NCBI GenBank assembly: GCA_048886185.1
Contig: JBHLKY010000010.1
Coordinates: 176,901-208,900 of the forward strand
Direction of reading: 5' to 3'
DNA from: Candidatus Hermodarchaeota archaeon
GTDB taxonomy: Archaea; Asgardarchaeota; Heimdallarchaeia; Hodarchaeales; Hodarchaeaceae
Length of the DNA: 32,000 nt
Below the pieces are notes generated by a model, which did not search any database, was not told the origin of the DNA, and was given only the letters and a program-made list of their open reading frames with translations. Each line of letters opens with the position of its first letter. Position 1 is the stretch's first letter. A program made the translations under genes and the position numbers. Below, in pieces: positions 8,921 to 29,567 of this stretch.

Positions 8921-9090
8921 TTAATCATCTCCGTATGTTAAAAGCATGATAGTTTAATAGTAATTAATAAAAGAAGTTTTGGCAAATTCTTATTGCAAAA
9001 ATAGGGAAAGTTCTAAGAACAAAATATCAAAACTTGCATTCTTTTCTTCATTATCAAATAATCTACAAACTCTATATAGGATTAGATGAC

Positions 9091-10056
9091 ATGGATAGCC
9101 TTGATAAGCTCATTTTGCAAGTACTTTCAAATAATTGCAGAATATCATACTCCGAACTGGCACGAAAGGCCAAAGTCTCCCCTAATACAATTAAAAACCG
9201 CATCCAAAATTTGATCAATCAAAAAATCATATTAGGATTTACTATCCAATTCAATCCAGCTCTTTTGAAGTTTAGTACAGCAATTATCTCCTTTCAATTT
9301 TCAAATCAAATTTCAGAGGAAACAATTAATCGGATTGGTAATTATTCATTAGTTTCTGCGGTCGGTGTGTCCTTAAATTCTGGTTTTGTAGTAGCTTTGT
9401 ATCAAAGTAATGAAGAATTGGCCCAGTTTAGTGATCACTTGCATTCTCTTGGTAATTTAACTGATCTCGAAATCTTACCTATCCTATTACCATTAACAGT
9501 TGATACAACTAAACCGAAGGATAGACTTGAGAGTTTACAACCAATTGATTGGTTACTTCTTTATCACCTACGTGTGAACGGGAGGATGTCATTAAGTAAA
9601 TTAGCAAAAAAAACCCATCTTAGTGTTAAAACAATCAAAAAAAGACTAAATTCACTGAATAAACGAAAAATGATTCATACAACTATTTTAATGAATCCTG
9701 GAGCGATTTCAAAAGGATTAATGGTAATTTTCGTCTTAGAACTTCCCAAAATTACTAGAGAAGTTCGACATTCAATAGAAAAGATGATTCGCAATGTCCA
9801 CGAGGATAATTTTTGGGTTTCGTGGCAGGTGGTTGATAGACCTATAATCCTGATTGGTTTCCAAGTTGCAAATGTTCATGAAGTAAAAATAATTCAAGAG
9901 GATATTTTAAAACTTATACCAGAATGTGTAATGAGAAAACATATGATTGGCGGAGACATGAAGTATTTTCCTGATGTTACTGATCAATTGCTTGAAGATA
10001 AAAGAAATCAAGGATGGTTTTCATCAGAACTTTGGGAACGAGAGTTAAATTCCTAA
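9091..10056 (+). CDS. Tandem Lrp/AsnC-type winged-helix transcriptional regulator
   Basis: Two AsnC HTHs: LDKLILQVLSNNCRISYSELARKAKVSPNTIKNRI and IDWLLLYHLRVNGRMSLSKLAKKTHLSVKTIKKRL. ATG 9091 is preferred over the track TTG at 9034. Confidence 0.88.
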   Translation: MDSLDKLILQVLSNNCRISYSELARKAKVSPNTIKNRIQNLINQKIILGFTIQFNPALLKFSTAIISFQFSNQISEETINRIGNYSLVSAVGVSLNSGFVVALYQSNEELAQFSDHLHSLGNLTDLEILPILLPLTVDTTKPKDRLESLQPIDWLLLYHLRVNGRMSLSKLAKKTHLSVKTIKKRLNSLNKRKMIHTTILMNPGAISKGLMVIFVLELPKITREVRHSIEKMIRNVHEDNFWVSWQVVDRPIILIGFQVANVHEVKIIQEDILKLIPECVMRKHMIGGDMKYFPDVTDQLLEDKRNQGWFSSELWERELNS

Positions 10057-13091: not shown

Positions 13092-14318
13092 ATGATACAT
13101 AAAGGTGCAAACTTCTTGAGTTTTAAGAGAATTAATACTCGTTCTAATGAACTTTCATCTTTAACTCTTGCTTTTAAAGCTCATAGAAGTCGATTTAAGA
13201 GATCATTTCAAATGATTCTTGATCGGAAGAGTCCTATAGAATTAAAACAATATCCAGATGAATTTCTCAATGCATTCAACAACATAAAATCTCCAGGAGT
13301 TGCATTAAAGCATTATTATAGGCTAATTTTGTTGTTATTCCTAGCTAAGGATGACTTCACAGATCTGAATAAGAATGAAATAGATATAATATTCAAGGAG
13401 GTCGGAGTTGAATTATCCATCGATGTGTGGAAAAAATTAACAGGGCATTTAAGCAATGATTCTGATAATCTTCTGTACAAAATAAGGTTGGGGAAAGACA
13501 CCAGATTATTATTTTCCTCTAATAAAGATTTAATTAAGATAATGACGAGATTATTAACAAATTCTCAATCTATTGAACCTCCTCATGACTATTCATTAGC
13601 CATATTTAGTAAATCAGCTCCTAAGGATAAAAATAACGTTGATTATTGTTTAGATTTTTCTAATTACTTCAAAGAAGGTTTACCATCTGAAGATCAATGG
13701 TTAATTATAGAGGACGAATTAACAACTACAATTGAAACAATTTATGAAACTCACTTTGAAACAACACTTTTATTAAAAGAGTGTAAGCCTCATCCCTCTC
13801 TCTCTTTCATTCTAGGACATTCAGCTAATTATTTTGAGGGTTTGAAGTTATATATGTATCAGAATGGTCAATATTGGAAATACGAAAAGATAAATGAGAA
13901 TATTCGTGCCTCTAATCACTGGAATATTTCTACAAAATATAGAAAACCTTTAAATGATGATGAAATTAATGTTTTAATAAGTGTAAGCGATCCAATTATA
14001 CGATATGCCGAGAAGTATCTTCAAAAAGATAGAGAGGATACCAAATTCACTGTTCACTTTTCAATTAAACCTGAACCACAAGTAAACAGCATCACCGATC
14101 AAGATGATGCACTGAGAAAAGTTGATGCTATTTACACGTATCTAACGCGACTTAAAACGAAGATCCCTTATATTAAGGTTCATTTATTTATTTGGGCCCA
14201 AGCTGCTTTCATTTCATTACTTGGAATGAGACTTTCCTCTGTTGCCCTTGTTCAACTATATGAATTTGATCAAAAAACAGGAAATTTTGAACCTAGCCTA
14301 TTACTAGATCGTTATTAA
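13092..14318 (+). CDS. SAVED-domain protein with an uncharacterised (wHTH-like) N-terminal region
   Basis: The C-terminal ~240 aa carry SAVED hallmarks: LDFSNYF..LPSEDQW, HPSLSFILG, YQNGQYW, INVLISVS, VHLFIWAQAAFISLLGMRL, VQLYEFDQ..F.PSLLL. The true start may be TTG 13116 (AGGTG SD). Confidence 0.8.
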   Translation: MIHKGANFLSFKRINTRSNELSSLTLAFKAHRSRFKRSFQMILDRKSPIELKQYPDEFLNAFNNIKSPGVALKHYYRLILLLFLAKDDFTDLNKNEIDIIFKEVGVELSIDVWKKLTGHLSNDSDNLLYKIRLGKDTRLLFSSNKDLIKIMTRLLTNSQSIEPPHDYSLAIFSKSAPKDKNNVDYCLDFSNYFKEGLPSEDQWLIIEDELTTTIETIYETHFETTLLLKECKPHPSLSFILGHSANYFEGLKLYMYQNGQYWKYEKINENIRASNHWNISTKYRKPLNDDEINVLISVSDPIIRYAEKYLQKDREDTKFTVHFSIKPEPQVNSITDQDDALRKVDAIYTYLTRLKTKIPYIKVHLFIWAQAAFISLLGMRLSSVALVQLYEFDQKTGNFEPSLLLDRY

Positions 14319-14472
14319 CAATAACTATCAATCAAAATCAATACAATCTTTTTTAGTATTCATTCTAGGCATCTATTTTTTTTTACATGAACTATAACAC
14401 ATATGCCTTAGATAAGGAGATTCTCATGATTAAATGCCTATAAATGACATAAAAAAGCTTTCTATTTTTTTT

Positions 14473-14486
14473 GCACTGTATCGCAC
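14473..14486 (+). promoter_or_regulatory. Distal GCAC-N5-CGCAC box (copy 1)
   Basis: GCACtgtatCGCAC; the same motif occurs four times, twice per cassette. Confidence 0.65.
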
Positions 14487-14591
14487 TTTATTGAACTTGA
14501 AATATCTGCTTTATTTTTCTCTATAAAGAAATTTAACAAAATACTTCTTTGTTTAAAGTATAGAAAGGGTTTTTTCTATAGTACTAAAATT

Positions 14592-14605
14592 GCACATGTT
14601 CGCAC
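14592..14605 (+). promoter_or_regulatory. Proximal GCAC-N5-CGCAC box (copy 1)
   Basis: GCACatgttCGCAC, 119 bp downstream of the distal box and ~22 bp upstream of the TATA-like element. Confidence 0.65.
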
Positions 14606-14618
14606 CACTTATTTAAAA

Positions 14619-14635
14619 CCATAAAACTTAAATAT
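14619..14635 (+). promoter_or_regulatory. Putative BRE/TATA element (copy 1)
   Basis: ccataaaacTTAAATAt, equivalent to ccataaggtTTAAATAa in copy 2 at the same distance from the palindrome. Confidence 0.55.
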
Positions 14636-14653
14636 ATTTCTGAATAAGATATA

Positions 14654-14679
14654 TATTGACCTGGAATCATTGGTCAATA
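14654..14679. promoter_or_regulatory. Palindromic operator or 5' hairpin TTGACC-N10-GGTCAA (copy 1)
   Basis: TATTGACC-tggaatcatt-GGTCAATA, perfect 8-bp arms, at the expected transcription start ~25 nt after the TATA. Confidence 0.7.
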
Positions 14680-14705
14680 CCATTAGATTAATAAAGGTGA
14701 TAAAC

Positions 14706-14771
14706 ATGGCAGATAAAGAGAAGAAAACAAAAACAAAAAAACCACGAGCTAAAAAAACAAAGAAGAAATAA
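14706..14771 (+). CDS. Lys-rich microprotein A1 (21 aa) MADKEKKTKTKKPRAKKTKKK
   Basis: AAGGTGA SD upstream of ATG; paralog at 22950-23012 with 57/60 nt identity over 20 codons. Confidence 0.8.
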   Translation: MADKEKKTKTKKPRAKKTKKK

Positions 14772-14827
14772 TTTAGCTAAAGAATAGGTGATTTTTAAAA
14801 TAATTTTTTTTTAAAAGGGTGATTGAT

Positions 14828-14947
14828 ATGAGAAAGGGACCAAAAAAGAAGCCAATCTATGAAGAAGAAGAAGAGGAAGAAGACTGGGAGGACGAGGACG
14901 ACGATTGGGACGATGAAGACGAAGATTGGGATGAAGAGGATAATTAA
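14828..14947 (+). CDS. Basic-head/acidic-Trp microprotein B1 (39 aa) MRKGPKKKPIYEEEEEEEDWEDEDDDWDDEDEDWDEEDN
   Basis: GGGTGA SD; paralog at 22784-22897 with synonymous changes and frame-preserving length differences. Confidence 0.82.
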   Translation: MRKGPKKKPIYEEEEEEEDWEDEDDDWDDEDEDWDEEDN

Positions 14948-14966
14948 TCGTTTTAAAATTTTACTT

Positions 14967-15004
14967 GAGGTGAAATTTCCCCTTTATTAGGGGAACTCCA
15001 CCTC
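14967..15004. terminator. Hairpin 3' of cassette copy 1 (terminator or stability element)
   Basis: GAGGTG..TTCCCCT-ttatt-AGGGGAA..CACCTC between convergent units; sequence-related hairpin in copy 2. Confidence 0.65.
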
Positions 15005-15028
15005 TATTTCTTAAATACATACACTAGC

Positions 15029-15871
15029 TTATAAATGGTCTTCAAGCCATTCCTTCAAATCTATTAAAACTTGGTTACGACCAGGTTGTGGTTCGTTATA
15101 AACTTCGTGATATAATCCTTCATAATATTTTAGCTGTTTATCAGAAACCGTTATGTATGAAAACAGCTTTACCGGGTCAAGAGTGAGTTTGTCAAGTTTT
15201 CCGGATTGAACAAGGATAGGGAGTTGGATTTTTGATAATGATTCAGGAAGCTTTTTGCTGACCTTCAGATATTCTGCTCCAAGACGATAAGTTACAAATG
15301 TAAATACTAATGGATCGTTCTTGTAGGCTTCAACGACTTTAGGATCACTAGAAATATCGTCAGCTAAGTTAGTATTGACCTTTCCTTTCGGTCTAATTTT
15401 TGACAATAGTCCTGAGAGTAGGACTACTAATGGATTAACCTTACTTGTGGCAGGATAGCCAAATCCTGAGAAAATAACTCCTTTTAGCTCCTTGGAATAT
15501 TTAATTGCATACTCAATAGCAATTATAACACCCATTGAGTGACCTAACAAGAAAAGCGGAACATTTACCTGTTCTTCCTTGATAAGATGAGTAAATTTCT
15601 TTGCATCCTGAGAATAGTCGTTAAAACTATTCACATAACCCCTTATGCCCTCTGATTTTCCATGGCCCCGTAGATCATTACAGTAGACAATAAAATTATT
15701 TGGTACCAAGGAATTTACCACGTTCATGTATCGAGAACTATGTTCTGCTAATCCATGCACAATCTGAAGAATAGCTTTCGGTTTTCCATCTGGTTCCCAT
15801 ACTTGATAATATAAATTGAGGCCATCATCAGTTGTAAAATGATCGTCTCTATGTTTCATGATTCTTCCCAT
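15029..15871 (-). CDS. Monoacylglycerol lipase/lysophospholipase family alpha/beta hydrolase
   Basis: VHGLAEH, DLRGHGKS, GHSMG nucleophile, GKLDKLT, YHEVYNE. Start may be ATG 15859. Confidence 0.92.
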   Translation of the reverse strand: MGRIMKHRDDHFTTDDGLNLYYQVWEPDGKPKAILQIVHGLAEHSSRYMNVVNSLVPNNFIVYCNDLRGHGKSEGIRGYVNSFNDYSQDAKKFTHLIKEEQVNVPLFLLGHSMGVIIAIEYAIKYSKELKGVIFSGFGYPATSKVNPLVVLLSGLLSKIRPKGKVNTNLADDISSDPKVVEAYKNDPLVFTFVTYRLGAEYLKVSKKLPESLSKIQLPILVQSGKLDKLTLDPVKLFSYITVSDKQLKYYEGLYHEVYNEPQPGRNQVLIDLKEWLEDHL

Positions 15872-16296
15872 ATCCTGCTTTTCAAAATAATTGAAAAAAC
15901 AATTGGTATAATTATTTACTCTCTGATTTTCCCCTTAGTATATTTTTCTTAATCTTGTTAAAATACTTTCAATCGACCCCTAAGTTTCCCTAATTGTGAA
16001 ATTTCTGCTATTTTTTATCTTTCTTAAAGGAAAATAAGAAATGATTACAGTAAATAGAATTCTCCAAAATAAATATGGGGGAAATAAAGCTCATCAGATT
16101 TGACGTTCCTTCATACCTTTTTATTTTTGGAAAATGCTAGAGATCAGGATTTTATCAGAATTTTTGATATTAATTAGTCTGTAAAATATTCTGAAAGTAT
16201 TAGAGATGATATTTCGAATATTGAGAATTAAAAGATGGAGTTAACTCTTTTGTAAAACTATATAAATACCTAAATTGTAGCGAACTAGATCTTAAC

Positions 16297-17121
16297 ATGC
16301 AATCTGATATGTTTAATTTTCCTGTAGAAATAAAAAAGCTTGATTGGCCATTTAATTCTAATTTTAATGAAAATGAGGTTCGACAACTGCTTAATGAATT
16401 TGGAGGAACTGCACAATATCAAGTGAAGGAAGCTCATTTTAATTTCTATGAATTTTCTCGTATAAGCTTAAGCCTCAGTCAACCTGCTATTGTACTCTTT
16501 CTACCAGAAAAAGGTTATTATTCTATTAAACCATTTGCTTACCCTCCAGCAATCACCCTTTCTTTGAAAAAACCTCCAATAAACTTAGCAAATTATCATC
16601 GAATGAGAATTCAACACTTAATCCATTCTCTTGGAGAGCATTTCCCCGAAACAGAAATGTTAGAATCAAAATCTGGAGATCTTCTAATAATTTTTCAAAA
16701 ATTCTTATTTTATCCAATCTGTCAGTTCAACACGATTCAACAAATCAGCCAATTAATCGAAATTCTTTGGTTAGCATCTAGAGCCAGGATATTACTCGAT
16801 TATAATCAAAGCCATTGGCTAGTCTCAGAAGTGGAATACATCTACTATGTGGACACAGATTACATCGGACACTCATATATTGACCTTGATAGGTGTCTTT
16901 TTGAAAATTTGAATCAATCACTCGCTTTTTTTACATCAGAAAATGTTGGTTTACTACCTCTAGCCATTGATAATTTTTCTGAAAGTGATGAAACTCAAAC
17001 GCGTTTTGTCAATAGATTAAAAAAAGCTCTAAAGAAATTAATAGAAAACTGGGATATTGGAAAGTTGTCGGAAGAGAATAAACGGAAATTAGAAGTGTTT
17101 AACAAGATTGTTCAGGCCTAA
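16297..17121 (+). CDS. Hypothetical protein with a degenerate protein-kinase-like fold
   Basis: YSIKPF (beta3 Lys-like), RILLDYNQSHWLV (HRDLKxxN-like loop), IYYVDTDY (DFG-like), in kinase order. Confidence 0.5.
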   Translation: MQSDMFNFPVEIKKLDWPFNSNFNENEVRQLLNEFGGTAQYQVKEAHFNFYEFSRISLSLSQPAIVLFLPEKGYYSIKPFAYPPAITLSLKKPPINLANYHRMRIQHLIHSLGEHFPETEMLESKSGDLLIIFQKFLFYPICQFNTIQQISQLIEILWLASRARILLDYNQSHWLVSEVEYIYYVDTDYIGHSYIDLDRCLFENLNQSLAFFTSENVGLLPLAIDNFSESDETQTRFVNRLKKALKKLIENWDIGKLSEENKRKLEVFNKIVQA

Positions 17122-17425
17122 CATTTTTAGTGTCAATAGCGAGTAATTGAGCTCAATTATTCTTTAGTTTATTTATTGAAGTAAAAGGAAGACGCACAGA
17201 ACTGTCTGCATTTTTAATCATCTAGTTCCTTAAGCTTTTAAGAATAGTATAATATATATAATTTCTCTTAATCCTGTATTATTGAAATTTTAGTCTTTTC
17301 TTTTCCAAAATTTACCATTTGTTCTTCCCTGTGAACTTTACAGCTGTGAACATTTTATTGTTTTCATAATCTTTTAAAGATAGGATCTCATTGGCTATAT
17401 ACCCCTTATTATGATCTCACTATGA

Positions 17426-17983
17426 ATGTTGGTTAATCAAATGCTTGATACGAATGAAACTGTAGGAGTCCACTTGGAAGGATTTGCCTTTGGAATGACT
17501 GATGGGATTATATGCTTTCTTGGAATAATTATCGGAGTAGCTCAGGCAACACGGGATCCTAAGATGGTTATAATTGCTGGTATAGTTGGTGGTATTGCGG
17601 ATGCTTTTGGTAACTCCATAGGTTTCCTTATCTCCCAGATAACTGAACAAAGTATTCAAATGCATCAAAAAGAGGATTTAGGACAAGAAGTTCGGATTCA
17701 TAGTCAAGGAGAAGTAATATTTAGTGGCATATTCTCTTTTATTGCGACAATCATAACCTTAGTATTGCTTATCGGACCATATTTCTTCATCGATGATTTC
17801 TATCTAGCTATGTTTGTTACATTTATTTTAGGAGTATTGTCACTATTCCTCTTAGGTAGGTATGTGGCTAAGATTAGCAAGAAAGATCAGTTAAAAATGG
17901 GTTTATTATATGCAATAATAGGGATAACAGGTGCAATTTTCGCTTTTATGATTGGAAGTTTGTTAAATCAGATTATTCAATAA
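17426..17983 (+). CDS. VIT1/CCC1 family metal (Fe/Mn) transporter
   Basis: FGMTDGIICFLGIIIGVA, IAGIVGGIADAFGNSIG..SQITE; five TM segments. Confidence 0.88.
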   Translation: MLVNQMLDTNETVGVHLEGFAFGMTDGIICFLGIIIGVAQATRDPKMVIIAGIVGGIADAFGNSIGFLISQITEQSIQMHQKEDLGQEVRIHSQGEVIFSGIFSFIATIITLVLLIGPYFFIDDFYLAMFVTFILGVLSLFLLGRYVAKISKKDQLKMGLLYAIIGITGAIFAFMIGSLLNQIIQ

Positions 17984-18297
17984 TCTTAAACGGTTTAATC
18001 TGAAGTTTTATAAAATAAGGATTAAAATTACCAAAAAATTAACTAAAAGCTTCAATAGGATCTATATTATGTAAGGTAATTGTACCGTCGTAATTTAAAA
18101 AAGTCAATATTTCTATAATATCCATGACCCTTTCCTCAGATTGAGGTGCTTTTGATTCCTTTTTCATTTGATCGTCATTTAGAACATGGATTTCTTTCTT
18201 TATAAATTTAATTAAATGGAATTCAGAAAAAATTCACTTGACAGATATTGACACATTAAGATAACAATAAGAAGTAAGCAAGATTTTAAAGATTCAA

Positions 18298-19587
18298 GTG
18301 TTGAGAGTGAATAAAATACGGTTAAAAAACGCGTTATCAGTTTTTATTTTCCTTATTTTTATATTTAAAGTGTCTGGTTATTTAGGTTCCCCCGTATATA
18401 ATGTTATAATGAATAATTCCTATTCAGGTTTTAGAGGTGTTAATTTAGGTAATTTTTTAGAAGCACCAAATGAAGGAGATTGGAGTAATGGGTTATTAAT
18501 TCAAGAAAAACACTTTAATCGGATAAAATCGGCAGGATTCAACCTTGTGCGTATTCCTATTCGTTGGAATGCTCATGCTTTGGATATTTCTCCTTATACT
18601 ATTGATGGTTCCTTTTTTGATAGAGTTGATTGGGTAATTAATCAAGGTATTTTAAGAAATTTGTCTATTATAATCAATATTCATCATTATAATGAGTTAA
18701 TGGCTGACCCTGAAGGCCATAAGGATCGTTTCCTTAGCTTATGGCAACAAGTTTCCCATCATTATCAGAATTATTCCAATGCATTGATTTTTGAAGTTTT
18801 AAATGAGCCTCATGATAATTTGAATAATTCCCTATGGAATCAATACCTAAAAGAAGTGATTGGTGTTATTCGTCAAACAAACCCCGCTAGAACACTGATA
18901 ATAGGTCCCACAAATTGGAATAATCTTTGGGCACTAAATGACCTTATACTTCCTCAAAACGACTCCAACATAGTAGTCACTTTTCATTTTTATTCTCCTT
19001 TTGAATTTACACACCAAGGAGCTGAATGGGTTTCAGGAAGTAACGAATGGTTAGGAACCAATTGGACTAGATCTCAACCTGAAATGGATGCCATTAATTA
19101 TGAATTTGACATTGCAATAAATTGGGCTAGAGTAAATAACAAGAGCTTATTTTTGGGTGAATTCGGAGCATATCAATACGCTTACATAAATGGGCGTATT
19201 GAATGGACAAGCTTTGTACGTGCAAAGGCTGAATCATGCCCTGAAATGTGGGGTTGGGCCTACTGGGAGTTTTGTTCTGGTTTTGGAATCATGGATAGTA
19301 GTCTAAGTTACTGGTACATTGGATTAGTGGGCGCTCTGCTTCCAGATAGTCCTTTGATTGTGACTACTACGACTTATTTCTCCTCTGCAGCACCTAGTTC
19401 GCTTCCTATAGAGTCTAATACTAGTCATAAATCATCTAAAACAAGTGTTGAAGCTGATCATACATCCACCTCTCAATCTAATATTTCGTCAGGGTCTACT
19501 ACCCTGGAAATACTACCTATTCTTGTTTTAAACTTCATTCTCACCATATTTTATACAAAAAGAAGAACTAAAAATCAAAGGAAGTAA
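18298..19587 (+). CDS. Glycoside hydrolase family 5 endoglucanase/mannanase (Thermotoga Cel5A-like), C-terminally anchored
   Basis: GVNLGNFLEAPNEGDW, VRIPIRW, NIHHY, acid/base VLNEPH, FHFYSPFEFTHQGAEW, nucleophile LGEFGAY, WAYWEF; signal peptide, Ser/Thr linker, TM and basic tail. Confidence 0.93.
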   Translation: MLRVNKIRLKNALSVFIFLIFIFKVSGYLGSPVYNVIMNNSYSGFRGVNLGNFLEAPNEGDWSNGLLIQEKHFNRIKSAGFNLVRIPIRWNAHALDISPYTIDGSFFDRVDWVINQGILRNLSIIINIHHYNELMADPEGHKDRFLSLWQQVSHHYQNYSNALIFEVLNEPHDNLNNSLWNQYLKEVIGVIRQTNPARTLIIGPTNWNNLWALNDLILPQNDSNIVVTFHFYSPFEFTHQGAEWVSGSNEWLGTNWTRSQPEMDAINYEFDIAINWARVNNKSLFLGEFGAYQYAYINGRIEWTSFVRAKAESCPEMWGWAYWEFCSGFGIMDSSLSYWYIGLVGALLPDSPLIVTTTTYFSSAAPSSLPIESNTSHKSSKTSVEADHTSTSQSNISSGSTTLEILPILVLNFILTIFYTKRRTKNQRK

Positions 19588-19651
19588 ATATCCACTTAAA
19601 TGGATTATTTATCGAATAGGGCTCTCAGAAGGGAGTACAATGAATTTATTG

Positions 19652-19885
19652 TTATTGCTTATAATCTAAACTCTTTATATATATAATAGTTCCTGTTGTA
19701 AAAAACGCTACACCAAGTAAGCCAAAAAAATTGGTACTAGCCAAAGCGCCAATTGTTTCAGAACTGATTGCTTCAGTCATATACATAAAACTAATCAAAA
19801 AAACTATTAAACCAATAACCCAACCGATTATTCCAATAATTTTTAAAATATATTTCTCATTTTCGATTACAGGCACTTTTTCCAC
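19652..19885 (-). CDS. Small 2-TM hypothetical membrane protein
   Basis: Two hydrophobic helices; GTG start. Confidence 0.6.
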   Translation of the reverse strand: MEKVPVIENEKYILKIIGIIGWVIGLIVFLISFMYMTEAISSETIGALASTNFFGLLGVAFFTTGTIIYIKSLDYKQ

Positions 19886-20211
19886 CCAAGATCAGATATA
19901 ATACAGAGTGGATATTATAATCCAATGGATTTTGTGAATTTACTAGTTCTTAAATTTTTTTATGAATTCACTGTGATTGGGATTTGGCCCCAAATCTCTT
20001 CTTTTTTTCTAAAAAAAATAGATTACACTTAAATACAGGCAAGAAAAACCTTATGTAGAACCAAAATCTGCTTTTAAGAAGTAAAAATGTCGAATGGAAC
20101 AGTCTGATGTCTCCTTTTTTTGAGAGTCTTAAGAATTGAAATCGTTAGCTAGTTTTGCTTTTTTTTGGTTGTAATTGAGGTTCTATTCGTATATAAAAAG
20201 AAGTGTAAAAA

Positions 20212-20718
20212 ATGTCAAGTTATAGTTCAGAAGAAACACATGACGTGAAAATCGAAAGCGTTAAACCCTTTGAAAAACGCCTAAATGTCGTTTTTATGGT
20301 TACAGAGAGAGGTGAAGAACGTGAGATCAATAAACGAACGGGTGAAACGCATAGAGTGTGTGATTTCACTGTTGCAGATGAAACAGGGATTATCACTCTA
20401 ACTCTTTGGAATGAAGATATTGATGTATTGAAAGAAGAAAATGTCTATAAATTATCAAATGGTTTTGCTAATGTATTTCAAAATTCCCTTAGACTATCAA
20501 AAGGAAAATTTGGAAGCATCGCTGAAGATTCGACTGTTTTTGAGGAAATAAACACAGACAATGATCGTTCCGCAGCACATGTAGATGATCCCCGTAGACA
20601 ATCATACGGAAATAGAGGAGGAAGTTATCGATCCCAACAGTCATACGGATCATATGGAAGTGGACGTTCCTCTGGAGGATATGACAAACAGCGGTCTAAT
20701 CGGCGTACTCGTTGGTAA
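20212..20718 (+). CDS. Single OB-fold ssDNA-binding protein (RPA/crenarchaeal SSB-like) with G/S/Y/R tail
   Basis: LNVVFMV, VADETGIITLTLWNEDI, VYKLSNGFANVF..LRLSKGKFG; low-complexity tail. Confidence 0.9.
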   Translation: MSSYSSEETHDVKIESVKPFEKRLNVVFMVTERGEEREINKRTGETHRVCDFTVADETGIITLTLWNEDIDVLKEENVYKLSNGFANVFQNSLRLSKGKFGSIAEDSTVFEEINTDNDRSAAHVDDPRRQSYGNRGGSYRSQQSYGSYGSGRSSGGYDKQRSNRRTRW

Positions 20719-20772
20719 AAAGGATCGATTTTAAATAGATTCAATAATTTAAATTTCAGTTCACTAATCAAT

Positions 20773-20839
20773 GGATGTGTTCTTCGCGCCTAACAACAAC
20801 CTGAAGCAGAGAAGGAACGGTAGGCTAGAAGAACATTCC
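20773..20839. other. Long imperfect GC-richer stem-loop downstream of the SSB gene
   Basis: GGATGTGTTCTTC pairs with GAAGAACATTCC and GCCTA with TAGGC, enclosing a ~28-nt purine-rich loop. Confidence 0.55.
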
Positions 20840-21844
20840 TCCACACTTTTAATGGAGATCAATTGCATGTACTTTGAGAGACTTCAAATTCATTCATGAA
20901 TTAAAAAAAATTTTGAAATATAGAAATCTTTTCTCAACCCAACAGACGATTTATGATATGTATGGATTCATGGGAATGAGAGAAATGGCCAAAACTGCAT
21001 GTTGTGCTGATATTAAAAGAAGGATTTTTGGTTACAAGATTTAAGAATCCAGAACGGAAAATTAAGCCTGTCATTATTCTACACAACTATCAGCAAATCT
21101 TTTTTGGGAGGAATTCTGTAAAATAGAATCAGAAAATTCTATTTTAATCCTAGTAATTCAGTTAATTGATCAAGATAATTTATCATTCCATGTATAGCTC
21201 CTACTAGATAAAGAGATTTTGTGTGTGGAACAAGATAGATATCAAGATAAACCATAAAACACCTATGAGAACCCAAAGAAGCATCAATTGATGATCAATG
21301 AAGTGTTTCAAGACAAAGTAAATAGTGACAGTCAGAATCCCAACGGGTGTATTCATTCTTTCAACAACGCGGATTTGAAGGTACCCCCGAAAACCAATTT
21401 CTTACCAGAAACCATTTAACATTGCTTAGGTTAAAAAAAACTCTGATTATTGAAACTTGTATTTTTAAATTTTTGTATTCAATCAGAACACAAGTAAAAA
21501 CATACGGAGGGTATCAATTACACACAGAAGAATCTGAGATTCAAGTAACATCATTTGAGTTTGGACTTGTTACTCAATTCATTCTCATTAACTGAGAAAT
21601 GTATCACAGGTTTTAATATTAATTAACGGAAGAGGATGATTGATTCCTACAAAATGAATTCTCCAACATGTGGATGGAGGAGCCACAGATCGTCCGATCT
21701 AACGCCCCTCCACTACATTTTGCGATTGGAAAGCGTAATTATCTTTTTAGAGATTTCTAAAATATTTTCTGGAGATCATTCATTTAAAATCTTCGTTAAG
21801 GGATGGATTAACACTAATAATTAGAAAATAGACAACTTCAAATT

Positions 21845-22102
21845 ATGATTACTATATTGACTCAACAATTGAGATCATTAGAAAAAATCCCTGCAGACGA
21901 GTTTGATGATCATATCCATTCATTAAATATCCCCTACCAACAATTCTCTTTTATTGATAAAGACTCTCTTTCTGCATTTAATTCTAAGTACAAAGAAATT
22001 AAGGACTTATTATTCAAGTCACATGAAAAACACGAAACAATAGAAGATATAATTAGAAACTCTATTCATTTAGCCATCTTTGGGGCTTTTTCGATGGATT
22101 AG
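21845..22102 (+). CDS. Short hypothetical ORF, possibly a gene relic
   Basis: Protein-like composition; the frame continues ~35 codons past the TAG (EGNVNIPHKLGFKE...); no clear SD. Confidence 0.3.
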   Translation: MITILTQQLRSLEKIPADEFDDHIHSLNIPYQQFSFIDKDSLSAFNSKYKEIKDLLFKSHEKHETIEDIIRNSIHLAIFGAFSMD

Positions 22103-22270
22103 GAAGGTAATGTTAATATTCCACACAAACTTGGATTCAAAGAATCCTCCAAGAGGGATACAGTTGCAGATTGTCTAATTTGCATGATTGTCCATATGAA
22201 AAATTTTTTGAACTATAAATTGCAAAAGTTCCGCAAGTAGTGAAAATATCCTTCAAAGGTGAATGTATAA

Positions 22271-22696
22271 ATGGAAGAATCTCGTTCTCATGCCGTTATT
22301 GTGTCTAATGTTCATCGTGAATTTCGAATTGGTGAGATTACTGTTCATGCGCTTCGGGGGACTAATATGGAAGTCTCTGAAGGCGAATTTGTTATCGTGC
22401 TAGATCCAAGTGGATCTGGAAAATCAACATTGTTAAATCAAATTGGAGGGATAGACTCCCCAACTAAATGTAGTGTGAAGATCCATGGGGAGAATATAAC
22501 AGACTGGCGTGGAGGGAAACTATCTGAATATCGTCGTAATAAGGTTGGTTGGATTTTTCAATTTTTTAATCTTATTCCTTCTTTAAGAGCATGGGAAAAT
22601 GTCGCACTCGCTTTAGAGTTCAAAGGTGATCGAAAAGAGATATATAAGTTTTATAAAAAGAGAGATATTATGTACAAAAAAAAGGCCCTTATGTAA
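22271..22696 (+). pseudogene. Truncated ABC transporter ATP-binding subunit (LolD/MacB-like)
   Basis: Walker A is mutated to DPSGSGKS (GAT at 22403); Q-loop GWIFQFFNLIP is present; similarity ends near ENVALAL, with no LSGGQ signature or Walker B. Confidence 0.88.
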
Positions 22697-22703
22697 TTAA
22701 TAG

Positions 22704-22753
22704 AGGTGATTTTCCCTTAGTTAACCCTAGCAAAGGGAAAGGGAAAATCACCT
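22704..22753. terminator. Hairpin 3' of cassette copy 2
   Basis: Perfect 15-bp arms AGGTGATTTTCCCTT (22704-22718) and AAGGGAAAATCACCT (22739-22753), with an inner CCCT/AGGG stem. Confidence 0.75.
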
Positions 22754-22783
22754 TTGAAATTATTTCAATTTAGCAAAAAGAAG

Positions 22784-22897
22784 CTAATTATCCTCGTCAT
22801 CCCAATCGTCGTCGTCTTCCCAATCCTCTTCTTCTTCTTCTTCTTCTTCATAGATTGGTTTCTTAGGAGGAACTTTCTTCTTTGGAGCGTATTTCAT
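22784..22897 (-). CDS. Basic-head/acidic-Trp microprotein B2 (37 aa) MKYAPKKKVPPKKPIYEEEEEEEEDWEDDDDWDDEDN
   Basis: AAGGTGA SD; shares KKPIYE7-8DWED..DWDDE.. and terminal EDN with B1. Confidence 0.82.
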   Translation of the reverse strand: MKYAPKKKVPPKKPIYEEEEEEEEDWEDDDDWDDEDN

Positions 22898-22949
22898 ATT
22901 TTTCACCTTTTTCTAAATGTTTTTGATAAAGATTTTCCTTGTAATTAGA

Positions 22950-23012
22950 CTATTTCTTTGTTTTTTTAGCTCGTGGTTTTTTTGTTTTTGCTTTCTTCTC
23001 TTTTTCTGCCAT
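22950..23012 (-). CDS. Lys-rich microprotein A2 (20 aa) MAEKEKKAKTKKPRAKKTKK
   Basis: AAGGTGA SD; paralog of A1. Confidence 0.8.
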   Translation of the reverse strand: MAEKEKKAKTKKPRAKKTKK

Positions 23013-23043
23013 GTTTTTCACCTTTATTGTTCATTTTGTGGTG

Positions 23044-23065
23044 TTGACCAATGGTTTATGGTCAA
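23044..23065. promoter_or_regulatory. Palindrome TTGACC-N10-GGTCAA (copy 2)
   Basis: TTGACCA-atggttta-TGGTCAA; arms conserved and spacer diverged relative to copy 1. Confidence 0.7.
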
Positions 23066-23115
23066 TGTAATACAATTTCAGATGTTTATTTAAACCTTAT
23101 GGATTTAAGTGAAGG

Positions 23116-23129
23116 GTGCGGACGTGTGC
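23116..23129 (-). promoter_or_regulatory. Proximal GCAC-N5-CGCAC box (copy 2)
   Basis: Reverse complement reads GCACacgtcCGCAC. Confidence 0.65.
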
Positions 23130-23233
23130 GATCATAACAAAACAAAATACGTTAATATAATACTTTAAATGAAAGATAAAGTTATTAAATGACTTTTCAG
23201 AGAAAAATCACACAGTCTTCATTGTTCAGTGAA

Positions 23234-23247
23234 GTGCGGTACTGTGC
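23234..23247 (-). promoter_or_regulatory. Distal GCAC-N5-CGCAC box (copy 2)
   Basis: Reverse complement reads GCACagtacCGCAC, 118 bp from the proximal box. Confidence 0.65.
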
Positions 23248-23428
23248 AAAAAGTATAACAGATTATTTCTTAACCTATTTTGTCATATTTAAGCATTGAA
23301 TTATGAAAATCTATTGATCTAAGGTATAAGTATAATAATCCATTTAAAAAACATCATCAATCACAAAGTCTAGGATGGATTTAGTTTTCATTCATTACCT
23401 AGTTTGACCTAAAGATAACATTCATTAG

Positions 23429-24208
23429 ATGGTGATAGAACTGAGGAACAATTTAAAAAAAATTGATATTATCATCCATGATGGAAGAGAAGAACCTATT
23501 GAACTTGGACAAATGATAGATTTTGAAAAGAATGTTTATGAAAGGTTTTACGAACCCGCTCGTGAGTACGATACGACACATCAAATCGAAAAACTCGGCC
23601 CAGTTCTTATCGATTTTACCAATGTTCATAGTTGGGCTAAAGATATCCCTGACATCGATCCACGAAGTGCTCGGTTATTTTCTGTTTGGCTTGAAGATGC
23701 AAAAACTCATAAGATCATTGGAATAGCTCATGGATTTTTTATTTTACTTCCTTTTCTATTATCCTCTGCGACCCCTCAAGAATATTATTCATTTCAAGGA
23801 GATGGCCCCTATTATCCTATAGCAATAATTTATTCAGTTAGAACGACCATCTCTAATGAAATGCAACTTGATCTATTCCTTGATCGCCTATGGGAAGGAA
23901 TATCAGCAAATTGGAAGAAAATTCGGACTAATATTATTAATCGTCTTCCTAAGGGATCAGATTTATGGAAACGTTATATTTTTTCTTTTGAGAATATAAT
24001 TCATTTTACTTTTCTTTGTCCTTCAATTGATCGTGAGATAATTGATGCCTTAGAAAGAAATGATTATCGAATTACAAGCGTATTGCAGCTTCTAGCATCT
24101 CCAACACCTTCATACGATGAAGCCACTATAAAACATCACCTTTATACTGCTCGAAAAGTTCTCAAAGAAGCAAATACCAGTAAGGGTCAAAAAGATTCCT
24201 CAAACTAA
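23429..24208 (+). CDS. Hypothetical soluble protein
   Basis: 259-aa ORF with normal composition, 30 bp upstream of the PAP2 start; no family recognised. Confidence 0.7.
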   Translation: MVIELRNNLKKIDIIIHDGREEPIELGQMIDFEKNVYERFYEPAREYDTTHQIEKLGPVLIDFTNVHSWAKDIPDIDPRSARLFSVWLEDAKTHKIIGIAHGFFILLPFLLSSATPQEYYSFQGDGPYYPIAIIYSVRTTISNEMQLDLFLDRLWEGISANWKKIRTNIINRLPKGSDLWKRYIFSFENIIHFTFLCPSIDREIIDALERNDYRITSVLQLLASPTPSYDEATIKHHLYTARKVLKEANTSKGQKDSSN

Positions 24209-25211: not shown

Positions 25212-26081
25212 ATGTTCCTAGATTTAGTAGAGAGAATGGTGATAATACAGGTACTTTTATTTTTAACAACAATTCTTTTGATCTTTCCCCTTCTAGCCGT
25301 TCAATGGCAGAATCTCATAGCTTCTTCACAATTAAGTGAGTGCTGTATTTGTAGACGAACTATATCCAAAAATGAAGAAATAGTCGTTTGCCCAAATTGT
25401 CAAACAATTTATCATCGTACACACTTATCTTTATGGTTGAAAATAAGAAAAAAATGTCCAATATGTAAAAATATAATAAAAAATCGGTATTTACAATCTT
25501 ATTTCGGTATAAAAGATCCTGATTCCTCTATTAACATTGATATCTCAAAAAAAGGGGTTATTTCATGTCAAAGGAAACATTCTAACAGCAAGAATTCTAT
25601 TGCATTAGAGTGTCCATATTGTAAAAATATCTTGGAATCATCTGTTATTGGTGTGTTAACCCAATGTAAAATTTGTGGGTCATATATATCATGGGCCGGT
25701 GATTTTGAATCACGAATCAAAAATCTTGATGAACCGTTCCTGTATAAATCGAATAAGATTAAAAAAACGAGATTCAGTAGAAATAACGAGCATACTGATA
25801 AAATTAATTATCGAAATATTAAACGACAGAAAGAGAAAAATCGAGAGATTTTTCGAAAAGAATTACAGAAACAAACACTATTGGAATCTCAAGATCAAAT
25901 GTTCTTACTCAACCAAGACTACTTAAGAAGACAACTACAAGTACCAAATTATAAACAAGATCTTTCATTAAGAGAGAGAGAAAAAATTAATCCAAAGGAA
26001 ACTAATTTTCTTAAACTAAACATTTTTAAATTAGTTATAACGGCAATAATAGTATTGATTCTTATCTTTATGTTGATGTAA
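25212..26081 (+). CDS. Membrane-anchored RING-finger-like and zinc-ribbon protein (putative E3-like)
   Basis: C-x2-C-x12-C-x2-C-x4-H-x2-H-x3-W-x6-CPIC, then CPYC-x14-CKIC; hydrophobic helices at both termini. Confidence 0.75.
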   Translation: MFLDLVERMVIIQVLLFLTTILLIFPLLAVQWQNLIASSQLSECCICRRTISKNEEIVVCPNCQTIYHRTHLSLWLKIRKKCPICKNIIKNRYLQSYFGIKDPDSSINIDISKKGVISCQRKHSNSKNSIALECPYCKNILESSVIGVLTQCKICGSYISWAGDFESRIKNLDEPFLYKSNKIKKTRFSRNNEHTDKINYRNIKRQKEKNREIFRKELQKQTLLESQDQMFLLNQDYLRRQLQVPNYKQDLSLREREKINPKETNFLKLNIFKLVITAIIVLILIFMLM

Positions 26082-28163: not shown

Positions 28164-29567
28164 ATGATGAGGACAATTATAAGTCAACATAAAAAGAGTC
28201 TATTAATCATAGCATTCTTCATTTTCACTAGTTCGACCTTGAATCATGAAAATCTACTTTCTAATCAAGCAAACGACGATATAGCTGACGATAACAATTC
28301 TTTTCCAAACGATGTTTATGAATATGATATTTCTCAATTATCTGTTGAAACATCAGAAACAGAGATCTCTGGAACAATAATCACTGACAGTAGTACAAAT
28401 GATTATTGGTTGATAATTGAAAATGAAATTGAGGATAGTGATACAAGAGTCTCAACAACCTATATTGAAGCGGCTCAAAAATTCGAATTAACAGAAGAAA
28501 ATGCCAACATTACTCAAATTAAGCTCTATATAAGATATATTGATCTTTTCAAGGACGGAGAATATCCTCATGGAACTGTTTCCATCTTTAATGACAATAC
28601 TGGGAAACCAGGCACTCCACTTGGTACTACCACATTAGAAGAAGGATTTGCATCCCTTGATTTAGGTGTATCGATCGGTCCAACATGGGTTACTTTCACT
28701 TTCTTGGAACCAATAAATGTGGTTCAAGGATTTTATTGGATTGTATTAAGTGATACTGGCAATCAAGCAGTTGGATTTTGGGAATGGTACACCCAAGATG
28801 ATCTCACCAATGGAGATACTGGTGACTGGGCAGCGAAGTCATCTCATGAAGGTAATTGGGTACTTAATCCATTTCCCCCAGGAGATTTACTTTCTGAGAT
28901 CAGAATTCTGACAATGAATTCTGAACCTGAACCTGAACCAGAGCCTGAACCTGAACCAGAGCCTGAGCCTGAGCCTGAACCTGAACCTGAGCCTGAGCCT
29001 GAACCTGAGCCTGAGCCTGAACCTGAGCCTGAACCTGAACCTGAACCTGAACCAGAGCCTGAACCTGAACCTGAACCAGAGCCCGAACCAGAGTATTATA
29101 CACATGTATTCGAAAGCCGTGGTAAAGGTAACCATGGTAAAGGAAAAGTAACATACATTATAACATTGAAAATTGAAAAATACACCATCAAGAGATCAGA
29201 TATTGAATACAAATCCAGTGAAAAACTTTTCCATAAATCATGTAATAAACGAGGTTTGAACCAAAGCATTGATTGGCTTAAATTCAAAGAGGCATCAAAT
29301 GGCTTTGTTTTCCTTATAGAAATTGAAAACATTGAAGTTTGCTCCTCTAAAGGATCTGATAGTTCAGATAAAATCATTTTCGGAATTATTGCTAGTAATA
29401 TCAAATCATTTATCAGAGAAGTCTCTCAAGTCGATTCATTTAAATGTGAAGCGATCGTATTCAGAGTAACACATAATAATGCTAATAAATGCCACTCACA
29501 TGAAGTAGTAATGGTCTTTTCATATGGTCGTTGTAAATCGAGAAATAAACCTAAGAATAATGATTAA
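28164..29567 (+). CDS. Secreted/surface protein: beta-rich domain, E(PE)28 linker, basic Cys/His-containing C-terminal domain
   Basis: N-terminal signal-like helix; domain paralogous to the downstream giant protein; Pro-Glu repeat; no C-terminal TM. Confidence 0.85.
28923..29093 (+). repeat. Pro-Glu coding hexamer repeat, 57 codons E(PE)28
   Basis: Mixed CCT/CCA/CCC and GAA/GAG codons with the amino acids invariant. Confidence 0.97.

Follow-up and report, generated by a model that had tools for sequence, protein, structure and literature searches.

A duplicated bicistronic micro-operon linked to an orphan SAVED-domain gene in a Candidatus Hermodarchaeota archaeon

What do two facing DNA cassettes that escape annotation encode, and what might control them? 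Both lie in a window of 32,000 nucleotides (the whole stretch of DNA analysed here) from a Candidatus Hermodarchaeota archaeon. Each cassette is about 650 bp long and carries two short open reading frames, A and B; gene callers miss both peptides, and therefore the system is invisible in every annotation. The copies share about 70% identity overall and 96% over ORF A. An inverted-repeat search recovered two pairs of arms (14690-14764 with 22954-23028, 75 nt, 96%; 14846-14919 with 22791-22864, 74 nt, 82%), and a whole-genome DNA search with copy 1 returned copy 2 at E 2.8e-65 (70% identity, query positions 20-560) and no third full copy in the 4.84-Mb assembly. Mean column identity in the pairwise alignment is 81%; by segment, identity is highest over the 5'UTR and ORF A (92%), lower in the 3' part (69%), ORF B (67%) and the upstream DNA (65%), and lowest between the ORFs (50%). 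The two copies are thus inverted twins located where a preliminary description of this DNA had placed them, and its identity values (about 72% in the promoter, 95% in ORF A) were roughly right. It had also argued that they are not an assembly duplicate, and we agree, because the divergence is too large; moreover, another study of a related strain produced contigs that cover the two copies separately. We hold the duplication with high confidence.

Table 1. Positions of the cassettes, their parts and the neighbouring SAVED gene in the window
Feature	Position	Strand	Remarks
Orphan SAVED protein	13092-14318	+	408 aa; N-terminal winged-helix-like domain; proposed cassette regulator
Cassette, copy 1	14385-15003	+	
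Box 1, copy 1	14473-14496	+	GCAC-N6-GCAC-N6-GAAC; tetramers phased at 10 bp; invariant in all cassettes
Box 2, copy 1	14592-14605	+	GCAC-N6-GCAC; 119 bp after box 1, 35 bp before the TATA box
TATA box, copy 1	14627-14634	+	CTTAAATA; other cassettes TTTAAATA; within an invariant alignment block
Palindrome, copy 1	14655-14678	+	7 bp, 10-nt spacer; at the expected transcript start; folds at -9.0 kcal/mol
ORF A, copy 1	14706-14771	+	21 aa; net charge +10; Lys-rich, KKPRAK core; GGTGA at 14696-14700
ORF B, copy 1	14828-14947	+	39 aa; net charge -19; basic PKKKP-IY head, then poly-Glu and three DW units; GGGTGA at 14817-14822
3' hairpin, copy 1	14968-15003	+	-16.7 kcal/mol, z -3.46
Cassette, copy 2	22704-23380	-	
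Box 1, copy 2	23224-23247	-	
Box 2, copy 2	23116-23129	-	118 bp after box 1
TATA box, copy 2	23087-23094	-	TTTAAATA
Palindrome / 5' hairpin, copy 2	23044-23065	-	-8.8 kcal/mol, z -3.4
ORF A, copy 2	22950-23012	-	20 aa; net charge +9
ORF B, copy 2	22784-22897	-	37 aa; net charge -12; two DW units
3' hairpin, copy 2	22704-22753	-	15-bp stem; -26.2 kcal/mol, z -5.9

The cassette is a bicistronic micro-operon. The two ORFs lie on the same strand, 56 nt apart, between one promoter and one 3' hairpin, and each is preceded by GGTGA 5-7 nt before its ATG. Transcription from the TATA promoter would produce an mRNA of about 330 nt, bounded by a 5' and a 3' hairpin, from which two Shine-Dalgarno-led peptides would be translated: a polycation, A (20-21 aa), and an acidic, Trp-containing peptide, B, which across the cassettes measures 35-47 aa and combines a poly-Glu stretch and a short basic head with between one and four Trp residues embedded in Asp/Glu.

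Both ORFs are very probably coding. In 10 cassettes, drawn from eight genomes or contigs, both retain their frame and length; each of the seven type-1 copies has an ORF A of 20-21 codons, although its long A-runs are prone to slippage, and all indels in the B alignments are multiples of three, so that none breaks the frame. Substitutions are codon-periodic, the spacing between Shine-Dalgarno sequence and start is invariant, and the stops are conserved. The pN/pS ratio is 0.03-0.39 for B, in which synonymous sites approach saturation when the two window copies are compared; for A it mostly stays under 1. An alignment of 12 B peptides shows two invariant Trp residues as well as D/E columns, and strong purifying selection acts in B on the Trp residues, on the KKP-I/V-Y junction and on the DW-acidic motif at its end. 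In addition, a sediment metatranscriptome contains a 162-nt contig, flanked by adapters on both sides, that matches 14701-14840 at 90% identity and runs from ORF A into ORF B; it comes from a relative and from a type of library that can also hold DNA. Nothing else between 13000 and 24500 is covered in that run, which we do not count for or against the neighbouring genes. If the unit were instead a non-coding RNA, or DNA that acts only in cis as a regulatory element, with incidental ORFs, this would account for the strong conserved hairpins at both ends and for the unusually conserved synonymous sites of ORF A between the window copies, but this explanation is highly improbable given the codon-level pattern. 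Rfam covariance models gave no match at E <= 1 over 13800-24000, tRNA and tmRNA scans found nothing, and the next genes 3' of both cassettes are convergent, which leaves no co-oriented downstream gene for a regulatory leader to control. A leader peptide or attenuator was dropped for the same reason, and a third micro-ORF in the upstream leader was dropped because its frame is lost in G008, G019 and G001.

The peptides belong to no family that we could find. Peptides A and B, together with the payload peptide of locus L043 described below, had no match in Pfam, NCBIfam, PHROGs or PADLOC; four B peptides searched against Pfam at E <= 10 gave only two unrelated low-complexity rows, and a B profile returned nothing from PDB sequences at E <= 10. 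The same profile searched against 5.8 billion proteins had a single match, a 64-aa read-through of a relative's B, and against genome contigs it gave 599 pattern matches with none confirmed by tblastn, probably owing to low-complexity filtering. The best score of an ESM Atlas search on B (0.77) was uninformative. These results bear out the preliminary description, which had seen here a complete small expression unit, possibly an undescribed system, with two Shine-Dalgarno-led ORFs per cassette, a 3' hairpin in both copies, signs of selection and no named family. Everything that it had named as able to overturn this view turned out the other way: cassette orthologues exist in five congeneric genomes and four further contigs, a relative's cDNA joins A to B in an RNA library, pN/pS is low and the indels are in frame.

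Conservation extends to the control region, and the architecture of the cassette is as secure as its duplication. The boxes, TATA box, Shine-Dalgarno sequences and hairpin cores are invariant in an alignment of seven cassettes, including the TTTTCCC...GGGAAAA core of the 3' hairpin. Spacing from box 1 to box 2 is 118-119 bp at nine of ten loci (109 in L042), and from box 2 to the TATA box it is 35-36 bp in the nine loci with a located TATA; the variant TATA of copy 1 lies at about the same distance from box 2 as elsewhere. The composite box 1 motif is restricted to the two cassettes in the 4.84 Mb. The simpler GCAC-N6-GCAC occurs at 13 sites genome-wide (12.9 expected), four of which are inside the cassettes; the other nine fit chance, and a wider GCAC-box regulon was dropped on this ground. 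Within the window, six of seven matches to G(C/A)AC-N6-G(C/A)AC are inside the cassettes, versus 1.24 expected. The palindrome at the transcript start shows compensatory changes in G019, G016/G001b and L042 and a G-U pair in L046; it may be a 5' RNA hairpin or an operator, and such an operator could equally well belong to another factor.

The distribution of the cassette ties it to one gene. It was found in 6 (possibly 7) of the 22 genomes of the genus, with at most two copies per genome, arranged singly in G008, in tandem in G001 and G016 and inverted in this genome; a metagenome scan with a narrower alignment yielded one locus (L046). The gene for an orphan SAVED protein is present in G000, G008, G019, G001, G016 and G017 (cut at the contig end) and absent from the remainder of the 22, so that SAVED-positive and cassette-positive genomes form the same set, and the cassette lies directly 3' of the SAVED gene wherever the contig permits. 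This linkage is likewise held with high confidence, and what it means is a separate matter: when two features are seen together inside one genus, this may trace back to one subclade and not to function. Apart from the SAVED gene, the window ORFs compared on either side of the cassettes have no homologue in related loci, except for one 85-aa ORF in G008. Two ideas were abandoned on these grounds: a ribosomal or housekeeping role, given the presence of the cassette in so few genomes of the genus, and an origin of the facing copies by simple inversion of a tandem pair, given that, save for that one ORF, the flanks have no counterpart in G001, G008 or L045.

Next to SAVED homologues at 84, 63, 41 and 39% identity, the boxes and their spacing are retained, and at 39-41% this geometry survives even where the flanks or the payload have changed. 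At locus L043, the same regulator and boxes precede a different payload, a small, hydrophilic, basic protein of 40 aa, and beside a SAVED homologue with 25% identity an NYN RNase gene is preceded by a TATA box and phased GTTC repeats.

The SAVED domain itself is clear (Pfam E 7.5e-18; NCBIfam 96.6 bits, residues 154-406), with matches to Cap4 (Foldseek E 2e-13) and to the PADLOC model SAVED_PDDEXK (E 2e-23). Neither the PADLOC nor the NCBIfam model aligns before about residue 154. The preceding region (residues 1-162) was modelled by AF2 with a pLDDT of 84 as helices 72-87, 94-103 and 110-117 and a beta-hairpin at 128-141. Nearly all of the closest structural matches to this model are winged-helix proteins that bind DNA. 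The matches are weak (Foldseek E >= 0.04, probability up to 0.94; VIA Z 5.3-7.4) and fall in the range that the tool calls common (E >= 0.04, Z < 8), and the assignment depends on a shallow alignment of seven sequences. No Pfam HTH match was found in the protein.

From synteny, co-occurrence and the structure model, we consider it probable that this SAVED protein regulates the cassette. By analogy with other SAVED proteins, ligand-driven head-to-tail assembly would align the winged helices on the phased G(C/A)AC-N6 repeats, which form two clusters about eleven helical turns apart just 5' of the TATA box, and a single SAVED regulator, encoded upstream of copy 1, would serve both copies. The alternative that another factor acts on the boxes or the palindrome of a real micro-operon, and that SAVED adjacency reflects co-inheritance or co-movement, is unlikely. 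On the one hand, copy 2 has no adjacent SAVED gene, the SAVED gene lacks boxes in its own upstream region, confidence in the winged helix is no more than moderate, and a Lrp/AsnC-type regulator with a double HTH is encoded 4 kb away (9034-10056). On the other hand, the SAVED gene is the only neighbour kept beside the cassette across rearranged contexts, adjacency and orientation persist along with box geometry down to 39% protein identity, even through a change of payload, and the confinement of the boxes to the cassettes is what would be expected for a dedicated local regulator.

Sensors that pass a cyclic-nucleotide signal to transcription are known from other systems. Csa3 is a CARF-wHTH transcription factor of CRISPR loci that responds to cyclic tetraadenylate (PMC9704534, PMC8844856). 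The present protein resembles it in combining a sensor of the CARF/SAVED superfamily with a winged helix (here predicted) as the presumed switch of nearby genes. However, the sensor here is SAVED rather than CARF, the predicted winged helix is N-terminal rather than C-terminal, phased direct repeats take the place of a palindrome as sites, and what would be switched is a micro-protein operon. The 96%-complete assembly yielded no CRISPR-Cas, Cas10, Cmr2 or Csm1. In CalpL-CalpT-CalpS, a SAVED-Lon protease releases an ECF-like sigma factor (PMC11417357). There, too, a cyclic-nucleotide signal read by a SAVED sensor leads to a change in transcription, as is proposed here, but by a proteolytic route of three proteins, whereas in our case DNA binding would reside in the sensor, and genes for Lon, anti-sigma and sigma factors are absent. 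The SAVED domain is clearly homologous to that of the CBASS effectors Cap4 and Cap5, whose nuclease domain is replaced here by a winged-helix-like module of about 150 aa; unlike in CBASS, no CD-NTase is present nearby or assembly-wide. Searches for CD-NTase/SMODS (PF18144) were negative in the window and genome-wide, with positive controls detected, and none of SMODS, Cmr2 and Csm1 was found in the assembly as a candidate cyclase for SAVED.

If the regulatory link holds, a SAVED-domain transcription factor, its operator and its target all lie within about 2 kb and can therefore be tested directly with recombinant protein and synthetic peptides, A and B being small enough for chemical synthesis. 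Cyclic-oligonucleotide signalling would then reach beyond the activation of enzymes to the direct control of genes, and would do so in a lineage without a known cognate cyclase.

What the peptides do is a more tentative matter. In the whole genome, the repeated acidic-Trp motif of B occurs only in the two B ORFs and at the C-terminus of PCNA. Each of the 21 PCNAs recovered from the genus bears a tail of 20-38 aa that is acidic and contains aromatic residues, and PCNA matches from other genera of the class end before the tail, at query residues 253-273. Because B repeats this acidic-aromatic tail, it may be read as a regulated decoy, with A as its counter-ion. As a free, inducible copy of the tail, B would act as a disordered decoy or DNA mimic for whichever basic surface reads the PCNA tail, and A, made from the same mRNA and matched in charge, would buffer or oppose it. 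This function is suggested by composition and motif sharing, and we put it forward as doubtful; the likeness between B and the PCNA tail, both of low complexity, could be convergent. A complex prediction for B with the PCNA core trimer scored 0.02 in a run without controls, which says nothing either way.

Small disordered proteins of this kind have precedents. DSS1/Sem1 is a small, acidic, Trp-containing disordered protein that acts as a DNA mimic for OB-fold proteins; B is similarly very small, disordered and strongly acidic, with Trp in Asp/Glu runs as its few conserved residues. However, the searches of Pfam, with its family profile DSS1_SEM1, and PDB described above revealed no sequence relation between them, and B has a basic head and a polycation partner gene. 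Prothymosin-alpha and histone H1 form a polyelectrolyte pair of oppositely charged disordered chains, and by analogy A and B may be expected to bind tightly without folding, although they are 5-10 times smaller, archaeal, encoded in one operon and equipped with conserved aromatic anchors.

In a rival account, operon and SAVED control are the same but the peptides have no specific target: induced by stress, they would protect or condense macromolecules, for example as a Lys/Glu coacervate that sequesters RNA or DNA, and SAVED would read a stress nucleotide rather than an antiviral one. It fits two extreme, disordered polyions made from one mRNA, the basic, hydrophilic substitute payload at L043, a genome in which no cyclase or CRISPR type III genes were found, and a neighbourhood that is not a defence island. 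We nevertheless judge it rather unlikely: a bulk polyion would need none of the strongly selected Trp, KKP-I/V-Y and DW-acidic elements, the motif shared with PCNA points to a specific reader, and the distant module homologue drives an NYN RNase, an effector-type payload.

Two tiny co-transcribed genes of opposite charge also recall a toxin-antitoxin-like pair or small mobile module spread by duplication, with A as a nucleic-acid-binding toxin and B as its antidote. Copy number and arrangement do vary between genomes, and a truncated ABC ATPase ORF abuts copy 2. Still, this is very unlikely: no terminal repeats, target duplications, transposase or integrase were found, no genome has more than two copies, an alignment search with the SAVED protein found no relatives in viral contigs, neither product matches a known family, and a regulated promoter of 330 bp is unusual for such pairs.

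The account that best explains the locus as a whole, and that we favour by a little over even chances, is a bicistronic micro-operon under SAVED-wHTH control that would produce decoy B and counter-ion A. Its most specific form, in which the SAVED-wHTH protein polymerises on the repeats upon binding a nucleotide messenger and induces two disordered micro-proteins, and B competes with the PCNA tail for a host reader, is improbable as it stands. If that form were true, the signal would be coupled to replication or chromatin, eukaryote-style motif-and-decoy logic would exist in the closest prokaryotic relatives of eukaryotes, and the protein would be the first transcription-factor member of the SAVED family and a new signalling output in Asgard archaea. 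Taken together, the peptides and the acidic-aromatic PCNA tail found throughout the genus suggest that the replication or chromatin biology of Asgard archaea includes an unrecognised reader of linear motifs. The preliminary description had mentioned neither the tie between the cassette and the adjacent SAVED gene nor the recurrence of the acidic-Trp motif on PCNA.

The window (contig C10:176901-208900 of the source genome, G000; 31-36% G+C) contains two facing units of ~650 bp each, each carrying one ORF for a basic micro-protein (A) and one for an acidic, Trp-bearing micro-protein (B). The inverted duplication reported in the preliminary description was recovered by a repeat search, as two pairs of inverted arms, and by searching the entire 4.84-Mb assembly at the DNA level, where copy 2 was found with E 2.8e-65 and 70% identity and the sole further match lay in contig C9, in a short acidic stretch. 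Divergence between the copies is uneven: identity is highest (92%) across the 5'UTR plus ORF A and lowest (50%) in the spacer that separates the ORFs; it is 65% upstream, 67% within ORF B, and 69% in the 3' part. The copies are too diverged to be an assembly artefact, and contigs of a related strain from an independent study (run X5) map to each copy separately; thus, as previously argued, this is not an assembly duplicate. Copy 2 resembles copy 1 less than it does the single copy of G008, another genome of the genus, with which it shares 91% identity in B and 73% in the spacer. An 85-aa ORF near copy 2 has a homologue (72% identity) near the G008 cassette, which fits an orthologous relationship between these two copies. 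The two A ORFs have zero synonymous differences, and the B ORFs are near synonymous saturation (pS 0.96, pN 0.05). Because copy 2 is otherwise nearer to the G008 copy, the 96% identity in ORF A could be due either to local gene conversion or to additional constraint acting on the A-rich RNA.

Coordinates of the cassettes, neighboring genes, and related loci (window positions unless a contig or locus is named)
Feature	Coordinates	Strand	Details
SAVED gene	13092..14318	+	408 aa
Cassette copy 1	14385-15003	+
Cassette copy 2	22704-23380	-
ORF A, copy 1	14706-14771	+
ORF A, copy 2	22950-23012	-
Inverted arms, first pair	14690-14764 / 22954-23028		75 nt, 96% identity
Inverted arms, second pair	14846-14919 / 22791-22864		74 nt, 82% identity
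Metatranscriptome match	14701-14840		90% identity
Ssb-like OB-fold gene	20212-20718	+	between cassettes
85-aa ORF	21845-22102	+	homologue L032:5582-5824
141-aa ORF	22271-22696	+
259-aa gene	23429-24208	+	divergent from copy 2
RING-finger gene	25212-26081	+
ORF with repeats	28164-29567		repeat run 28891-29124
204-nt stretch	28672-28875		recurs at 30497-30700
PCNA gene	G000:C9:117150-118007 (L047)		congeners: L048-L067
Box-less pair	G000 C10:158147-158460		outside window, ~18 kb upstream
Other box-less pairs	L021, L009, L013, L008
40-aa basic protein	L043:2100-2222
NYN RNase gene	L044:2157-2693

When seven cassettes representing five species of the genus were aligned, and three from other assemblies were added, the parts followed one another in an identical order throughout. 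Box 1 (GCAC-N6-GCAC-N6-GAAC, with a fourth tetramer in some cassettes) is followed by box 2 (GCAC-N6-GCAC), which starts 118-119 bp further on (109 bp in L042, a locus on another contig), and by a TATA box (TTTAAATA) starting 35-36 bp past box 2. A palindrome of 5-8 bp with a spacer of 6-12 nt lies ~20 nt past the TATA box, at the expected archaeal transcript start. Next come a GGTGA motif with ORF A 5-7 nt beyond it and, after a 50-120-nt spacer, a second GGTGA and ORF B. A 3' hairpin with the conserved core TTTTCCC...GGGAAAA (-16 to -26 kcal/mol, z -3.3 to -5.9) closes nine of the ten cassettes; no hairpin was seen past ORF B in L042. The 5' hairpin is predicted to fold at -7.7 to -9.8 kcal/mol, and its stem carries paired substitutions (TTGACC/GGTCAA, TTGGCT/AGCCAA, TGGCC/GGCCA, and GATTGTC/GACAATC) as well as one G-U pair in L046. 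The palindrome may be a protein operator or a paired RNA element; the G-U pair suits RNA pairing slightly better.

Copy 1 begins 40 bp past the stop codon of the SAVED gene, in whose product residues 154-406 form the SAVED domain, a cyclic-oligonucleotide sensor (Foldseek match to Cap4, E 2e-13). All 22 genomes of the genus were searched for this protein, and it is present in G000 (the source genome), G008, G019, G001, G016, and G017, a set made up of the genomes with the boxed cassette and one whose contig stops inside the gene. Wherever the contig permits, the cassette lies directly 3' of the SAVED gene on the same strand. This adjacency is more than leftover synteny, because among the other window ORFs tested to the left and right of the cassettes, only the 85-aa ORF is matched by a homologue in a related locus, that of G008. 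When 1.84 billion representative proteins were searched exhaustively, only four further full-length relatives emerged (63, 41, 39, and 25% identity), and the same design is present on their contigs (L042-L045). L045 has boxes at 119 bp, a TATA box at 35 bp, and a hairpin, followed by A and B; L042 is alike, and a TFS-like (TFS/RpoM-like) zinc-ribbon gene follows its cassette. In L043, GAAC/GCAC boxes (119 and 35 bp) precede a different payload, a 40-aa basic protein that contains the repeat A-x-R-x-Q/R-S-x-A-D-R twice and is followed by its own 3' hairpin. In L044, three GTTC tetramers with 11-bp phasing and a TATA box precede a gene for an NYN (Zc3h12a-type) RNase. The full cassette is also present on a metagenome contig whose SAVED gene is 84% identical. 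In G000, GCAC-N6-GCAC occurs 13 times (12.9 expected), four of them in cassettes, and the three-tetramer form is found in cassettes only; six of the seven relaxed matches in the window are in cassettes (1.24 expected). Such a distribution would be expected of a regulator dedicated to its neighbor. The original interpretation is supported, and the unit can be widened to a module with three parts: a probable sensor-regulator, its phased operator, and the micro-protein operon.

AF2 models of the whole SAVED protein (pLDDT 80) and of its residues 1-162 (pLDDT 84, pTM 0.80) predict an N-terminal long helix, a helix at 72-87, a short strand, two helices (94-103 and 110-117), and then a beta-hairpin (128-141), which is the winged-helix order. 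Foldseek matches were weak (E 0.04-0.3) and nearly all to winged-helix DNA binders (RTP, STIV F93, SmtB/ArsR, MarR, and PadR). An exhaustive structural search gave Z 5.3-7.4 to the winged helices of JetB, ORC2, ArsR, MarR, and RosR; since Z scores below 8 are common with this tool, we regard the protein as only a probable winged-helix DNA binder. The SAVED proteins Cap4, TIR-SAVED, and SAVED-CHAT assemble head to tail upon ligand binding, and PDB titles among the structural matches include head-to-tail filaments. Similar assembly here would space the winged helices regularly, which would explain why the boxes are direct repeats phased at one helical turn and not a palindrome. The SAVED gene is the only one in G000, and searches of this 96%-complete assembly for a SMODS cyclase, Cmr2, and Csm1 were negative.

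Both ORFs are very probably coding and are under selection, the latter in agreement with the preliminary description. ORF A keeps 20-21 codons in all seven boxed copies, despite the slippage-prone A-runs that make up most of it, and has an invariant core, KKP-R/Q-A/S-K; estimated on only ~11 synonymous sites, its pN/pS lies in the range 0.16-0.65 for most pairs, with two pairs at about 1.1-1.2. ORF B varies from 35 to 47 codons by whole codons only, with pN/pS of 0.03-0.39. Among 12 aligned B peptides, the start Met, two Trp residues, and D-E-D past the second Trp are invariant, and Pro5, Lys6, and a poly-Glu run are nearly so. The cassettes had also been described as expression units. A paired-end sediment metatranscriptome contained one 162-nt contig that, given its 90% identity and adapters at both ends, is a relative's short cDNA that begins shortly before ORF A and extends into ORF B; it only hints at co-transcription, because RNA libraries can hold DNA. 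Leader peptides were rejected as an explanation, because no co-oriented gene lies 3' of either cassette.

Neither peptide resembles anything in Pfam, NCBIfam, PHROGs, PADLOC, PDB, or ESM Atlas, as expected from the earlier failure to recognize a named family. Genome-wide, the repeated acidic-Trp motif is restricted to three places: the two B ORFs and the C terminus of PCNA. All 21 PCNAs recovered from the genus have an acidic-aromatic tail of 20-38 residues past the usual LLAPMQ end, consisting of Glu/Asp with embedded Tyr and Trp (Tyr at the Trp positions in five species); in other genera of the class, the PCNA matches break off before the tail, at query residues 253-273. An RFC small-subunit gene directly follows the PCNA gene. 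These sequences suggest that the genus has some reader of acidic-aromatic linear motifs, and B could then be an inducible free copy of the PCNA-tail motif, acting as a decoy or DNA mimic for a basic surface, with A as its co-translated, charge-matched partner (net charges +10/+9 for A and -19/-12 for B). This reading, drawn from composition, is speculative and has a rather low probability; the main alternative is that the peptides are non-specific stress polyelectrolytes. The NYN RNase payload in L044, the most distant module, argues that the outputs of the regulator are effectors rather than housekeeping genes. The Ssb-like OB-fold protein encoded between the cassettes is, purely by analogy, a candidate reader of acidic-aromatic tails.

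Likenesses to known systems are all partial. Csa3 (CARF-HTH) is the only characterized cOA-responsive transcription factor named in the reviews consulted (PMC9704534), and no SAVED-HTH fusion appears in these reviews or in the further literature searched. The SAVED regulator resembles Csa3 in logic but lacks two of its defining features, the domain order and CRISPR association, and it is no Cap4/Cap5-type effector either, since it has neither a nuclease domain nor a cyclase. The peptides share only their physical character with DSS1/Sem1 and with prothymosin/H1-type pairs. For these reasons, we file the whole as a probable variant of cyclic-oligonucleotide signaling, in which the sensor would have built-in DNA binding and the payload falls outside all described families. 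We conclude that the finding is real, that it is neither random nor previously described, and that it is under selection, which bears out its nomination as a candidate undescribed system.

The source genome is an Asgard MAG. In the search for copies across Asgard genomes, a B-peptide profile matched seven of 400 genomes of the phylum, all seven in its own genus. Arrangement varies, with one copy in G008, two in tandem in G001 and G016, and two facing in G000. The genus also has a second, more diverged kind of basic/acidic pair, which lacks boxes and occurs in either order, B-then-A or A-then-B. In two cases (G000 and L021), such a pair lies just upstream of a TFS-like gene; the G000 pair is partly degenerate, its acidic partner having in-frame stops.

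Several other genes in the window deserve mention. The 141-aa ORF aligns with the ABC_tran profile over no more than positions 1-96 of 137, and just 8 bp separate its end from the copy 2 3' hairpin; it has the appearance of an ABC ATPase gene truncated when a rearrangement brought copy 2 to this site. The 259-aa gene has no Pfam match and no homologue beside the cassettes of other genomes; its ESM Atlas model is GNAT acetyltransferase-like (TM ~0.5, a lead only). Further along the window, one ORF contains an extended series of CCTGAA/CCTGAG-type repeats with 12/18-nt spacing, and a 204-nt stretch of this ORF, just upstream of the repeats, recurs at 75% in the next gene. The RING-finger gene encodes a prokaryotic RING-finger protein (Prok-RING_1 / zf-RING_2), and domains of this type are of interest in Asgard genomes.
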